13,171 bases of DNA from an uncultured archaeon (GTDB lineage Archaea; Asgardarchaeota; Jordiarchaeia; Jordiarchaeales; Jordiarchaeaceae). The notes beneath the pieces are model-generated. The model was not told the DNA's origin. It saw only the letters and a list, made by a program, of their open reading frames with translations, and ran no database searches. The DNA lies in contig CAZECW010000144.1 of NCBI GenBank assembly GCA_964510585.1, positions 1 through 13,171 on the forward strand, in the 5' to 3' direction. Shown piece after piece: positions 716 through 13,171 of this stretch (within the stretch, counting starts at the first letter, position 1; every line of letters begins with the position of its first letter). Position numbers and translations under genes: made by a program.

Positions 716-2344
716 ATGAAGCTGGATGAGCGTATAGAAATTTATGGGAAAATGTCTTTGGCGCTTGAATATATTGAGTCTTGCAAAGAATTCGCCAGTC
801 TCATTCCTGAGGTGAGAACAAATCTGGTTTATGCGAGGACAGATCCTAAAACCCCAGAAGATGTCTTAGCTGTTGAGGGACGCATAACTGTGATAAACGG
901 TATGCCTCACGCTGCGGGGAAGCTAAAGTTTGGAGCGTCAAGCCACATGGCAAGGCTAATCATAGAAATAAACAGGAATGACCCCTCAATAAGAGCTGGC
1001 ATAAACTTTGCCTGCAACCCCGAGCTAATAAAGTGGCTTGAAAGGTACTGTGAGAAGAAGGGTTGGGTGTTTAGTGTAATCGACCGCTCCAAGGAGCCCG
1101 AGGAAGTCAAACAGGTAGAGGGTGCATCTATGCCTTGGAAGGTGAAGGAAACCATTCGGGCGGCAGGAGGGAGGGTGCCTAAGGTTTTCTACGAGGCGGG
1201 GGCTGTAGGCAAAGAAGACCTCACAGTGCTGGTGGGGAAGGATCCAATAGAAGTTGCAATGGATACCTGTGAATTAGCGAAGGAATACGCCAAGAGTCTT
1301 AGGCCTCCACCTAAAGTGGGCAAAATTGACTTGGAAACGTTTACCAATTATTTACTGCAACGCCTTGGGAAAAGGGATGAAACAGTTCTTGTGCCCCCCT
1401 TAACGGGTGTTGATGCCGCGGTAATTGATATAGGTAATAATAAAGTTCTCGTTGTGGCTGAGGATCCAATATTTTCTATTCCGAAGCAGCCGTTAGAGAT
1501 GTTTGGATGGTACACTGTTCACATTGGGGCGAGTGATATTGCCGTTATGGGAGTTAAACCCCGCTACATGACCTATTCGCTTTTGATGCCTCCAGAAACT
1601 AGGGACGAGGAGTTTAGAACCATTGTGGATTCCATTCATCAGACTGCCGTGGAGCTCGACATTGCCATAGTTGGAGGACATACCGGCTACTATCCCGGAT
1701 TTGCTTCGCCCACCATCGGGGGAATAGCAGTTTTTGCCATTGCAGACAAATACAGTTATGTTACAACGGCAGGCGCAAAGCCCGGTGATGACGTTATACT
1801 GACTAAGGGGCCTGCTATAGAGACAGTGGGAATACTGTCTGTTCTGCGTGAGCCAGAATTACTGGAGAAATATCCTAGGTCACTTGTGGAAAAGGCGAAG
1901 GCTCTGTGCAAAGAGATGACCGTGGTTAAGGACGCATTAACCGCAATGGAGGTGGGCGGCGTCACCGCAATGCATGATGCAACAGAAGGAGGAGTGATAG
2001 GGGGACTATTTGAGATAGCGAATGCTAGCAATGTGGGCATGGAGATTGATGAGTCCTCATTCATTTATCCAGAAGAGGTGAAAATGGTGTGTGAGGCATT
2101 CAACATTGACCCAGTTGCAGCAATCGCTGAAGGTTCCCTGCTCATCACCGCCAAACCGACGCACTCCCGACAAATAATCAAAAGACTTGGGGAAGTGAGG
2201 ATAAAGGCGTCCATTATTGGAAAAGTTACAAGCGACACAAAAACAAGAACAATGAAAAGAATCGACGGAAGGAAAGTACCATTAGAAATCCCGAGACAAG
2301 ACCCCTTCTGGCCAGTATTCTTCGAAGGCGTAGAAAAAGGGTAA
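716..2344 (+). CDS. thiN: ThiN-type thiamine-phosphate synthase domain (aa ~1-190) fused to an AIR-synthase-related PurM/HypE/ThiL-fold domain (aa ~200-542)
   Basis: ThiN motifs IPEVRTN, EGRI, FGASSHMAR, DRSKEP, EGASMPW, GAVGKE. After the linker RPPPK: GKI..., GVDAAVID, VVAEDP, ASDIAVMG, IVGGHT, AKPGD, MHDATEGG, typical of the uncharacterised PurM-like subfamily. Confidence 0.88.
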   Translation: MKLDERIEIYGKMSLALEYIESCKEFASLIPEVRTNLVYARTDPKTPEDVLAVEGRITVINGMPHAAGKLKFGASSHMARLIIEINRNDPSIRAGINFACNPELIKWLERYCEKKGWVFSVIDRSKEPEEVKQVEGASMPWKVKETIRAAGGRVPKVFYEAGAVGKEDLTVLVGKDPIEVAMDTCELAKEYAKSLRPPPKVGKIDLETFTNYLLQRLGKRDETVLVPPLTGVDAAVIDIGNNKVLVVAEDPIFSIPKQPLEMFGWYTVHIGASDIAVMGVKPRYMTYSLLMPPETRDEEFRTIVDSIHQTAVELDIAIVGGHTGYYPGFASPTIGGIAVFAIADKYSYVTTAGAKPGDDVILTKGPAIETVGILSVLREPELLEKYPRSLVEKAKALCKEMTVVKDALTAMEVGGVTAMHDATEGGVIGGLFEIANASNVGMEIDESSFIYPEEVKMVCEAFNIDPVAAIAEGSLLITAKPTHSRQIIKRLGEVRIKASIIGKVTSDTKTRTMKRIDGRKVPLEIPRQDPFWPVFFEGVEKG

Positions 2345-11740: not shown

Positions 11741-12031
11741 GTGGAAATGGACGTGGTAAAAGTTCCAGGTAGCAATAGGAAGCATAAGGTTCGCATGTAC
11801 GCTTTGAGCACCTGTATCTGGTGTAAGCGGACAAAACAGTTTCTGAAGGATAACAACATAGAATACGAATACGTGGATGTGGACCTGGCCAATAGAGAGG
11901 ACTATGAACAAATCAGGCAGGAGATTTTGGACAGGGGAGGAAACCTCTCCTTCCCAGTTATAATAATAGATGATGAAAAGTTAATTAATGGTTTTCGTGA
12001 AAGCGATTTGAGGGAGGCTTTGGAAATTTGA
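11741..12031 (+). CDS. Glutaredoxin/NrdH-like protein, methanoredoxin-like (CIWC)
   Basis: YALSTCIWCKRTKQFL, SFPVIII, INGF; starts 8 nt after the upstream stop; true start may be the ATG at 11747. Confidence 0.9.
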   Translation: MEMDVVKVPGSNRKHKVRMYALSTCIWCKRTKQFLKDNNIEYEYVDVDLANREDYEQIRQEILDRGGNLSFPVIIIDDEKLINGFRESDLREALEI

Positions 12032-12576
12032 CCACTCTGGAAGAAGTCCGAAAAAGAGCGGAGAGCGACGCAAAAACTTACGGCTACTACCTAAACCCAG
12101 ACCCAGAATTTCTCAAAGGACTCATAGAGGGACTTAAGAAGAACTGGGACCGCTATGGTTACCCCTCCTGCCCCTGCAGGTTGGCTTCAGGAAATCTTGA
12201 AATCGACCGCGACATAATTTGTCCCTGTGACTACCGAGACCCTGACGTGGCAGAGTATGGACAGTGTTACTGCTCCCTATACGTCAGTAAAGAGGTGTAC
12301 GAGGGTAAGGCTCCTCTAAGGTCAATTCCAGAACGCAGACCCAAAGAAAAGCAAATCAGATCCTTCGAAGCCGCAAGAACCCTCAAAAAGGAAAAAGTTG
12401 AAGAGGAGACAAAATTGGAAGCCGAAAAACCCATCACAATTAAGAAGAAGTTATGGTACTGTAAGCAGTGTGGCTACGTAGTCTACAGGGAGGATCCACC
12501 ATACATTTGTCCCATATGTAAAGCGAAGAGGGAAATGTTCTCGGAAATAAGCATAACCATCTCCGAGAAGGGATAA
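12028..12576 (+). CDS. Ferredoxin:thioredoxin reductase catalytic-chain-like protein with C-terminal rubredoxin-like domain (ferredoxin:disulfide reductase, FDR-type)
   Basis: YGYPSCPCR, ICPCDY, QCYCSLYV (CPC/CPC/CYC), then WYCKQCGY...CPICKA. The TTG start overlaps the glutaredoxin TGA (TTGA). Confidence 0.92.
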   Translation: MTTLEEVRKRAESDAKTYGYYLNPDPEFLKGLIEGLKKNWDRYGYPSCPCRLASGNLEIDRDIICPCDYRDPDVAEYGQCYCSLYVSKEVYEGKAPLRSIPERRPKEKQIRSFEAARTLKKEKVEEETKLEAEKPITIKKKLWYCKQCGYVVYREDPPYICPICKAKREMFSEISITISEKG

Positions 12577-12652: not shown

Positions 12653-12940
12653 TTATTTTTTTGCCTTCTGTCGTTCTTCTGTGCCTCGTGTGCAAAAGTA
12701 GACCTTGTTGAATTTCATTTCTTTCCATACTTGGCAATCTGGACACTGGCAGCCTACTTCCTCAGTTATTTTTTTACTTTTCCCTCTGAGAGGGTGGCAG
12801 TATGCTATGTAGGTGTCTGGTTCCCCGAGACTAGCGTAAGTTGGACAGTCTCTGCAGATGCACATTTTTTCAAATTGCTTCAACTTCTCTTCCGGAGCCT
12901 TCCCAGATTTTTCCCCGCGTGATTTAGACGTAGGATTCAT
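12653..12940 (-). CDS. DUF2769-like cysteine-rich small protein
   Basis: Eight Cys in the pattern CICRDCPTY...YC...GCQCPDC...YFC; AGGAGG RBS and TTTATAAG TATA box upstream. Confidence 0.78.
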   Translation of the reverse strand: MNPTSKSRGEKSGKAPEEKLKQFEKMCICRDCPTYASLGEPDTYIAYCHPLRGKSKKITEEVGCQCPDCQVWKEMKFNKVYFCTRGTEERQKAKK

Positions 12941-12986
12941 CTCATTTTAACCCTCCTAAAATGTTAGGTATTAGAATAAATTTTAA

Positions 12987-13001
12987 CTTATAAACCTTTA
13001 C
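12987..13001 (-). promoter_or_regulatory. BRE-TATA promoter of the DUF2769 gene
   Basis: Minus strand reads GTAAAGG TTTATAAG, about 47 nt upstream of the ATG at 12940, with AGGAGG in between. Confidence 0.65.
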
Positions 13002-13051
13002 AAAACCTTGGCGAGAAAGCCCCCGACTTTAGTCGTGGGGATGAATCGCCA
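13002..13051 (+). mobile_element. Left end of an IS200/IS605-family element (HUH-transposase hairpin); the element continues beyond the window
   Basis: TTAC (12998-13001), then AAAACCTTGGCGAG, AAAG (13016-13019), then hairpin CCCC-CGAC-ttta-GTCG-(T bulge)-GGGG (13020-13040), with outer pairing TGGCGA/TCGCCA. This parallels the H. pylori IS608 left end as I recall it (TTAC target, AAAG guide, T-bulged hairpin). Confidence 0.82.
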
Positions 13052-13064
13052 GAAAGTTTATTTG
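13051..13064 (+). promoter_or_regulatory. Candidate BRE-TATA promoter inside the IS left end
   Basis: Purine-rich AGAAAG followed by TTTATTTG; standard archaeal spacing predicts a start near 13084-13087. Confidence 0.5.
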
Positions 13065-13085
13065 AAAGTATGGTACATAAATAGT

Positions 13086-13171
13086 TGTTGGTAGCTGAAG
13101 GGTTTGGCTTGGGCTTAAGAGGCTAAACAAGACGCAGCCCCCATGAGGGTGCCAACATAGACGCCGTTCCC
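13086..13171 (+). ncRNA. Candidate structured non-coding RNA at the IS200/IS605 left end (probably extends past the window)
   Basis: Hand folding: 13086-93/13150-57 (8 bp), 13094-97/13135-38 (4 bp), 13102-10/13120-28 (9 bp, two G-U), 13140-42/13147-49 with ATGA loop. All three + frames hit stops. Confidence 0.55.

Follow-up and report, generated by a model that had tools for sequence, protein, structure and literature searches.

Introduction

The described systems closest to the locus considered here are IS608 of Helicobacter pylori, the omegaRNA of ISDra2, the omegaRNA-bearing PATEs and the non-coding RNAs of archaeal tnpB genes. IS608 inserts 3' of TTAC, and its signals are TTAC for C_L, TCAA for C_R and AAAG for G_L (PMC3201880). 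The scaffold of the ISDra2 omegaRNA is 116 nt long, with several stems and a pseudoknot, and it ends at the right-end boundary; in the complex, the 5' region of that RNA (-231 to -117) is disordered, and cleavage does not require it (PMC10097598). PATEs, which were first given that name in Haloquadratum walsbyi (PMC3119063), often encode omegaRNAs that are used in trans by TnpB, and omegaRNA-bearing PATEs have been noted in Geobacillus stearothermophilus (Meers et al. 2023, PMC10055086). In Halobacterium, the omegaRNAs/sotRNAs of IS1341-type tnpB genes are expressed (PMC12558985).

In this study, we analysed a 13,171-nt stretch of DNA (hereafter the window) from an Asgard archaeon belonging to Candidatus Jordarchaeia, the last bases of which carry one end of an IS200/IS605 element. 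Like the PATEs of G. stearothermophilus, the mini-element found there is protein-free, has IS200/IS605 ends, would rely on TnpA in trans, and carries an omegaRNA scaffold with its guide in the right flank. OmegaRNA-bearing PATEs are thus already known. What is new, and sets this family apart from the known ones, is: its host, an Asgard archaeon; the large number of copies (~70-80 in 3.8 Mb); the exact fusion of a tnpA promoter to the predicted RNA start, with the putative BRE/TATA of tnpA kept 29 nt before the RNA; and an extra 72-nt junction 5' of the scaffold. As in the Halobacterium sotRNAs, we are dealing with a non-coding RNA at the right end of an archaeal IS200/IS605 element, although the sotRNAs overlap an intact tnpB gene, whereas the mini-element has no gene and its RNA is a predicted one.

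The window copy ends inside a short repeat

A first-pass annotation of the window had described a multi-stem RNA with its own promoter just inside the left end of the element, and held that an RNA starting about 85 nt inside that end fits neither of the two known layouts. Upon checking the sequence, the left-end features including the hairpin, the motif AGAAAG-TTTATTTG and the four helices (P1 to P4) were all found to be present at the coordinates below, the helices pair as described, and the segment indeed lacks an open reading frame, with stops in every frame. The features, as read here, are as follows.

12998..13001, + strand: TTAC target, left cleavage site C_L and expected TnpB TAM (21 of 21 aligned complete copies; IS608 precedent)
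13002..13056, + strand: left end (LE), with a fold at z -5.1; the same LE precedes tnpA on contigs C169, C7 and C162
13051..13064, + strand: BRE/TATA-like AGAAAG-TTTATTTG, a putative promoter by homology to that of the parental tnpA
13065..13085, + strand: promoter-to-start spacer, derived from the tnpA leader and the most variable part of the element
13086..13157, + strand: 72-nt three-way junction, proposed 5' accessory domain of the omegaRNA (RNAalifold, conservation pattern)
13158..13171, + strand: first part of the omegaRNA core (5' arm of stem-loop 1), derived from the 3' end of tnpB and truncated by the contig end

The segment from position 12998 onward recurs across the host assembly (3.78 Mb in 217 contigs), in which a search for further copies by BLAST returned 133 matches. 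Of the copies, 29 are complete and internal to their contigs; a further ~50 left halves and ~40 right halves are located at contig ends, and from all of these we estimate about 70-80 insertions in the genome. The copies are 94-99% identical. When 21 internal copies were extended and aligned, the shared similarity proved to be only ~276-280 nt long, with TTAC and TCAA as its abrupt left and right limits and unrelated DNA beyond both, and the 3' end of the element reads ...GAGTGTCAA. For numbering along the element, a reference copy of 288 nt, which includes 4 flanking bases on each side, was used, with q equal to the window coordinate minus 12993 (q161 of the reference copy is window position 13154).

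The contig that contains the window, C144, ends at base 170 of the ~276-nt repeat, or at base 174 when TTAC is counted, and positions 12998-13171 are the left ~170 nt (two-thirds) of one copy of a gene-less IS200/IS605 mini-transposon. Going by the 29 complete copies, about 106 nt of the element, up to its right end, are missing beyond the window edge. That an RNA with its own promoter seemed to lie at the "wrong" end of such an element is an artefact of the contig end, arising because the contig happens to stop inside a tiny repeat. The first-pass annotation had also considered a TnpB-derived nuclease gene beyond the edge. No tnpB, iscB or tnpA was found there in any of the 29 complete copies, in all of which unrelated flanking DNA begins about 106 nt on, and no nuclease gene was found adjoining any copy among those with aligned flanks. 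Its third option, the RNA core of a non-autonomous mini-element, is the one that agrees with a protein-free repeat of ~276 nt.

Element ends and class

The left hairpin (13020-13040) is bulged, with T13036 extrahelical and a TTTA loop, and is enclosed by an outer stem (13008-13014/13046-13052). The left-end fold has a predicted energy of -25.1 kcal/mol, and none of 200 shuffles was as good. The first-pass annotation had suggested looking for a right-end hairpin, and one was seen in the complete copies, with GAAT on its 5' side and TCAA at the end. The two hairpins, CCCCCGAC-TTTA-GTCG(T)GGGG on the left and CTCCCGAC-TTTA-GTCG(C)GGAG on the right, share one strand and one orientation; the element thus has a subterminal imperfect hairpin at both ends and lacks terminal inverted repeats. 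AAAG, the left guide tetranucleotide, is located at 13016-13019, directly 5' of the left hairpin foot. As to GAAT, Barabas and colleagues are said to have described it in 2008 as the G_R of IS608. Each of the 21 aligned copies is preceded by TTAC, ends in TCAA, has unrelated flanks and shows no target-site duplication.

The ends therefore resemble those of IS608 in having TTAC, TCAA, AAAG, GAAT and a bulged T in the hairpins, as well as in the lack of inverted terminal repeats and of a target duplication. Small differences were noted in spacing: TTAC is 18 nt from the hairpin foot in the mini-element and 19 nt in IS608, and cleavage falls 8 nt after the right hairpin foot rather than 10. Unlike IS608, the mini-element has neither tnpA nor tnpB (there is no open reading frame within it, stops being present in all six frames), and its putative promoter is of the archaeal type. 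Similar ends on the same strand, the lack of an open reading frame and the occurrence of the same LE before an intact tnpA (see below) identify the element as a non-autonomous IS200/IS605 derivative, or PATE, to which the transposase would be supplied in trans.

Parent element and putative promoter

An LE that is 88-98% identical to that of the mini-element precedes an intact tnpA gene, followed by tnpB, on C169, C7 and C162, and truncated starts of the parental element with this LE are present on six further contigs. The parental tnpA product is a Y1 transposase of 129 aa (Y1_Tnp, E 9e-35). In the assembly, the closest TnpB family is broken up, and the parental tnpB is present as fragments; the sole complete tnpB, on C81, belongs to a family that is only ~45-50% identical and carries the OrfB_IS605 and TNB domains. 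The parental TnpB is carried by a sister genome, Candidatus Jordarchaeia archaeon QZM_A3. By sequence comparison, then, the mini-element is identified as having arisen by internal deletion from a tnpA-tnpB insertion sequence present in the same genome.

In nine parental left ends, the motif of the mini-element aligns with AAAG-TTTATAGG ahead of tnpA, and in the parental insertion sequence the tnpA start codon lies 41 nt after AAAG-TTTATAGG. This alignment suggests that AGAAAG-TTTATTTG represents the archaeal BRE/TATA of tnpA, kept in the mini-element. Counted from the first T of the TATA, P1 begins 29 nt away in 83 of 84 copies, and the corresponding distance is 30 nt in a metagenomic copy that is 86% identical; given this fixed spacing, the RNA would be predicted to start at T-G 13086-13087. 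The proposal in the first-pass annotation of a dedicated promoter with a start at P1 is thus plausible, judging from motif homology and spacing. A scan for sigma-70 promoters and terminators returned nothing, as expected for an archaeon, to which the bacterial model does not apply.

The spacer of ~20 nt between the putative promoter and the junction is homologous to the tnpA leader, as only 3 of 2000 shuffles scored as high when the 86%-identical metagenomic copy was compared with C169. One subfamily of copies departs from the others almost solely within this spacer (13065-13085). A second TATA-like motif, TATATAAA, is present in most copies at 13074-13081 and was considered as the main promoter; it was rejected, being unconserved and lacking from the window copy and from a whole subfamily.

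A TnpB omegaRNA scaffold follows the junction

Apart from the first bases of the core, the tnpB-derived core and the right end are past the window edge for this copy, and are known from the complete copies. In these, one frame 3' of the junction reads ...GANIDAV..VNWVMAHPL..., as compared with ...ALNIGAV..VNWAMAHPL... at the C-terminus of TnpB (tblastn E 1e-5). The relic peptide gave no Pfam match. The region q161-283 is 77% identical to the DNA right behind the TNB domain of TnpB on C8, and both Jordarchaeia QZM_A3 and a Hadesarchaea MAG have the same scaffold of ~112 nt 3' of tnpB, so that a scaffold homologue is found directly 3' of tnpB in three genomes. A degraded tnpB or tnpA reading frame had been raised in the first-pass annotation as something that would speak against its RNA. 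From about 13140-13154 onward the DNA is in fact a degraded tnpB frame, but it represents the 3' part of the gene and not, as had been supposed there, the 5' part.

An alignment of the core was made from the mini-element, the three tnpB-linked scaffolds and four PATEs of a sister species. The consensus consists of stem-loops in which seven pairs are changed on both sides, that is, in a compensatory manner. A long-range, pseudoknot-like pairing of UGGCAC with GUGUCA is predicted beside the guide position; these bases are invariant and thus uninformative on pairing. When folded as a whole from P1 to TCAA (192 nt), the RNA had a predicted energy of -82.5 kcal/mol and a z score of -5.1, and no shuffle of 200 was as good. 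Based on this homology, we identify the ~119-nt core as a TnpB omegaRNA scaffold and a relic of the 3' end of tnpB.

As the RNA would continue into a right-end omegaRNA scaffold, its layout becomes a normal one. Contrary to what had been claimed for an RNA so placed, the arrangement is most likely canonical, with the RNA at the right end of an element of only ~276 nt, directed outward and taking its guide from the flank, if it is transcribed as we suppose. Rfam searches showed no described family that accounts for the segment. The window had no match at the gathering score, a permissive search of 12900-13171 gave only chance-level matches (E > 0.5), and no match with E <= 1 was obtained for one complete copy and three tnpB loci, the families searched including HEARO/IscB omegaRNA, IS605-orfB, RAGATH and the small ribozymes.

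The arrangement can be compared most closely with that of the ISDra2 omegaRNA (Karvelis 2021, PMC8612924; Nakagawa 2023, PMC10097598). Both have a scaffold of ~116-119 nt that runs to the right-end boundary and an extra region on its 5' side; in the mini-element, the bases just 5' of the guide are predicted to pair with an upstream loop, which would resemble the pseudoknot of ISDra2. No sequence similarity was detected. By position, the counterpart of the junction is the 5' region that ISDra2 can do without. However, the latter is tnpB coding sequence and disordered, whereas the junction is non-coding and tightly closed, and lies right behind the putative promoter.

Fold and conservation of the junction

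The junction is made up of P1 (TGTTGGTA/TGCCAACA, 13086-93/13150-57), P2 (GCTG/CAGC, 13094-97/13135-38), P3 (GTTTGGCTT/AGGCTAAAC, 13102-10/13120-28) and the P4 hairpin (CCC-ATGA-GGG, 13140-42/13147-49). RNAalifold, when applied to 35 distinct full copies, recovered exactly these four helices, and 97.3% of the pair cells of the junction are paired. Folded alone, the + strand of the junction gave -25.7 kcal/mol and a modest z of -1.64, with 11 of 200 shuffles as good, while its opposite strand (z +0.63) folded no better than chance.

Since the strand active in transposition is also that of the RNA, this asymmetry cannot separate folding of an RNA from folding of single-stranded DNA. IS200/IS605 elements move as top-strand single-stranded DNA with their hairpins on that strand (PMC3201880), and closure of P1 would loop out 72 nt and shorten the distance between the ends; the junction and the other hairpins might thus act at the DNA level, approximating the two ends or protecting the circle intermediate. 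However, the helices need three to four G-T/G-U wobbles, which are weak in DNA, and the stems downstream covary with the tnpB-linked omegaRNA scaffolds, a known RNA. Moreover, the full-length parents of 1.7-2 kb transpose without any such compaction, and the IS608 literature consulted names no need for internal structure. We consider a role as single-stranded DNA to be highly improbable.

The distribution of variants bears on whether the junction has a function at all. Non-consensus cells are least frequent in the junction (1.5%), followed by the core (2.1%), the left end (2.3%) and the spacer (8.0%). Variants shared by at least 2 copies occur at 0.06 per site in the junction stems, compared with 0.29 per site at the unpaired bases of the junction (Fisher p 0.013) and 0.70 per site in the spacer (p 1.5e-7), and 2 of the 3 shared stem variants preserve pairing. 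In one of the P1 pairs, 96/161 in q numbering, C-G replaces T-A both in the diverged copy C49b and in the 86%-identical copy. The latter, which resides on a 427-kb metagenomic contig, keeps all four helices, and its other junction changes are mostly in loops.

The same data were weighed against the notion that the junction is functionless passenger DNA left from the formation of the mini-element, either a scrambled relic of tnpB or tnpA or an internal duplication, and that its conservation reflects nothing more than a young family derived from one master copy. Copies that are 94-99% identical have had little time to diverge, which is consistent with this notion. So is the check for covariation: formal covariation in the junction was not significant, with one double-changed pair whose value was reached by 63 of 500 shuffles, and the variant types seen among copies of the family divide into 8 that keep a pair and 7 that break one, about the ratio expected of neutral transitions. 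However, private (singleton) variants are evenly distributed along the element, whereas the shared ones, which come from lineages still transposing, are 5-fold rarer in the stems than at unpaired junction bases and over 10-fold rarer there than in the spacer. Also speaking against passenger DNA are the strand-specific fold with its G-U pairs and the copy from another population, in which four helices, one compensatory pair and loop-biased change are seen together. We hold with moderate confidence that the junction is a real RNA structure.

A copy of the sister species (G004:C77) was considered as a source of covariation in P1 and P3. It was discarded: once aligned, its P3 is better accounted for by a different local hairpin and its P1 by a shifted register.

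Distribution and origin of the junction

No significant similarity was detected between the junction and the 3' coding region of tnpB (shuffle test on four loci) or the 5' coding region of tnpA, and no source for it was found elsewhere in the genome, in which it never occurs outside the mini-element. A homologue is absent from all of the tnpB-linked scaffolds examined, and in the sister-species PATEs, which are ~210 nt long, the tnpA leader is joined almost directly to the core. The omegaRNA core can thus do without the junction, and the fact that these PATEs function, or in any case survive, in its absence is a further point in favour of passenger DNA. Between q133-156 and the beginning of the core (q160-184), 18 of 25 positions agree when one gap is allowed (p ~0.07); this resemblance would suit an internal duplication and is no more than suggestive of one. 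All considered, it is fairly unlikely that the junction is passenger DNA; the conservation pattern described above weighs against it.

When 400 Asgard genomes were searched for the junction pattern, it was found in this genome (38 matches) and in one decayed copy of the sister species, and it was not found in the 398 others; a DNA search likewise gave nothing beyond this genome and the decayed copy. The decayed copy retains the left end and the junction and has no right end. This is what one might expect if the junction were a separate small RNA with its own 3' end before the core, such as a regulator or, as raised in the first-pass annotation, a tracr-like partner or the leader of a neighbouring gene. 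The junction is also a closed and self-contained domain, and the end of P1 coincides exactly with the start of the tnpB-derived core. Nevertheless, neither a terminator-like signal nor a T-run is present behind P1, and in every copy a linker of just 3 nt connects P1 to the first core stem. The confinement of the junction to the element and to so few Asgard genomes, the lack of an Rfam match and the lack of a nuclease gene beside any copy likewise oppose such an RNA, which we regard as a very doubtful candidate. A by-eye check of the junction for known shapes turned up neither a hammerhead core, the linkers measuring 0, 1 and 0 nt, nor a kink-turn (tandem G-A beside a 3-nt bulge is absent), a bulge-helix-bulge or a tRNA-like four-way shape.

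Proposed mechanism and significance

The best reading of these data, in our analysis, is that the junction would form a closed 5' domain, accessory to the rest of the primary omegaRNA transcript, and would be neither a separate RNA nor part of the nuclease-binding core. Taken together, the explanation that the window copy is a truncated PATE, with its junction as the 5' domain of an omegaRNA placed canonically at the right end, is one that we think probable. The observations behind it are the element structure, copy number, ends, parentage, core homology and conservation pattern.

These considerations suggest a mechanism in which: TnpA from autonomous copies would move the mini-element as single-stranded DNA; the retained tnpA promoter would start an RNA at ~13086-13087; this RNA would cross the 72-nt junction and the omegaRNA core, and then pass TCAA into the right flank; and TnpB made elsewhere in the genome would load the guide RNA and re-cut the empty site, TTAC plus flank, thereby restoring the element. 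The junction would most likely serve as a closed, nuclease-resistant and independently folding 5' cap outside the TnpB-binding core. Going one step further, the junction may be a functional, lineage-specific add-on to the omegaRNA, acquired by the mini-element and kept by selection for stability or loading of the guide RNA or for recruitment of a host factor, an idea that we put forward only tentatively. If this were true, the element would be more than a deletion remnant: a self-promoted and self-stabilised mobile guide-RNA gene in a hot-spring archaeon. More generally, a functional junction would mean that omegaRNAs can acquire accessory domains outside the nuclease-binding core.

The family is a clean, high-copy guide-RNA-only mini-transposon of an Asgard archaeon. 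It combines a defined TTAC motif and what is probably its own promoter with some 70-80 natural guides, and it could serve as a natural data set on the use of guides by TnpB in trans. Mobility is suggested by the ~70-80 sites with differing flanks, by the many contigs broken within the repeat and by the presence of the mini-element in several metagenomes.

Conserved complementarity next to the guide

Positions marked q are bases of the 288-nt reference copy of the mini-element (window coordinate minus 12993). In the omegaRNA core, the loop of the second hairpin is complementary to the six bases located immediately 5' of the guide (UGGCAC...GUGUCA):

~q205-210 with q277-282, past the window edge (A2 columns 46-51 with 120-125): UGGCAC/GUGUCA complementarity, invariant in alignment A2

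The mini-element shares this complementarity with three tnpB-linked scaffolds and with the PATEs of the sister species, all aligned in A2. The two complementary segments are a candidate counterpart of the pseudoknot in ISDra2 omegaRNA.

The sister species, Ca. Jordarchaeia QZM_A3, carries a separate family of ~210-nt PATEs (loci L072-L078), which consist of a left end, the tnpA promoter and leader, an omegaRNA core of ~112 nt, and a right end. Unlike the mini-element in the window's own assembly, these PATEs do not have the 72-nt junction; one variant of ~270 nt (L075) has a different, unrelated insert where the junction would sit.

Origin and variation of the junction region

The 3' part of the junction is similar to the start of the omegaRNA core:

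13126-13149: 3' part of the junction, AACA-AGACGCAGCCCCCATGAGGG
q160-184 (13153-13171 plus bases past the window edge): start of the omegaRNA core, AACATAGACGCCGTTCCCTTAAGGG

The two segments agree at 18 of 25 bases if a single gap is allowed (p ~0.07 only in a shuffle test), a hint that a tandem duplication gave rise to part of the junction.

A subfamily of the mini-element, represented by full copies or left halves, is present on contigs C97, C134, C94, C124, C35, C98 and C64 of the window's assembly. Nearly all its differences from the main mini-element fall in the spacer of ~20 nt that separates the TATA motif from P1, the remainder being nearly identical, which suggests that this spacer is free to vary or has been swapped by recombination.

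Copies in metagenomes

A complete copy lies on the 427-kb metagenome contig Ga0315314_1000007, whose host is presumably another Jordarchaeia population:

L146:299-584, minus strand: complete mini-element copy, 86% identical

Near-identical copies are found in several further JGI metagenomes (L107, L149, L152, L153, L160, L176 and others).

An apparent tnpA-tnpB fusion

On contig C81 of the window's assembly, a degenerate tnpA and a complete tnpB share one open frame:

C81:5075-7000 (L034:1315-2988), minus strand: single tnpA-tnpB open frame, 557 codons

The HUH motif of this tnpA reads Y-I-Q, not H-L-H. Past tnpB, the frame stays open across the omegaRNA region as well as the right-end hairpin, with its stop codon just beyond TCAA. 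The arrangement looks like an in-frame fusion between tnpB and a tnpA that is decaying.

Neighbouring genes

The window also contains two gene fusions and a divergently oriented gene:

716-2344, plus strand: single gene for ThiN thiamine-phosphate synthase together with an AIR-synthase-like (ThiL-type) domain
12028-12576, plus strand: single gene for a ferredoxin-thioredoxin-reductase beta chain together with a rubredoxin-like domain
12653-12940, minus strand: DUF2769 gene

The mini-element is located 58 nt from the DUF2769 gene, on its upstream side.
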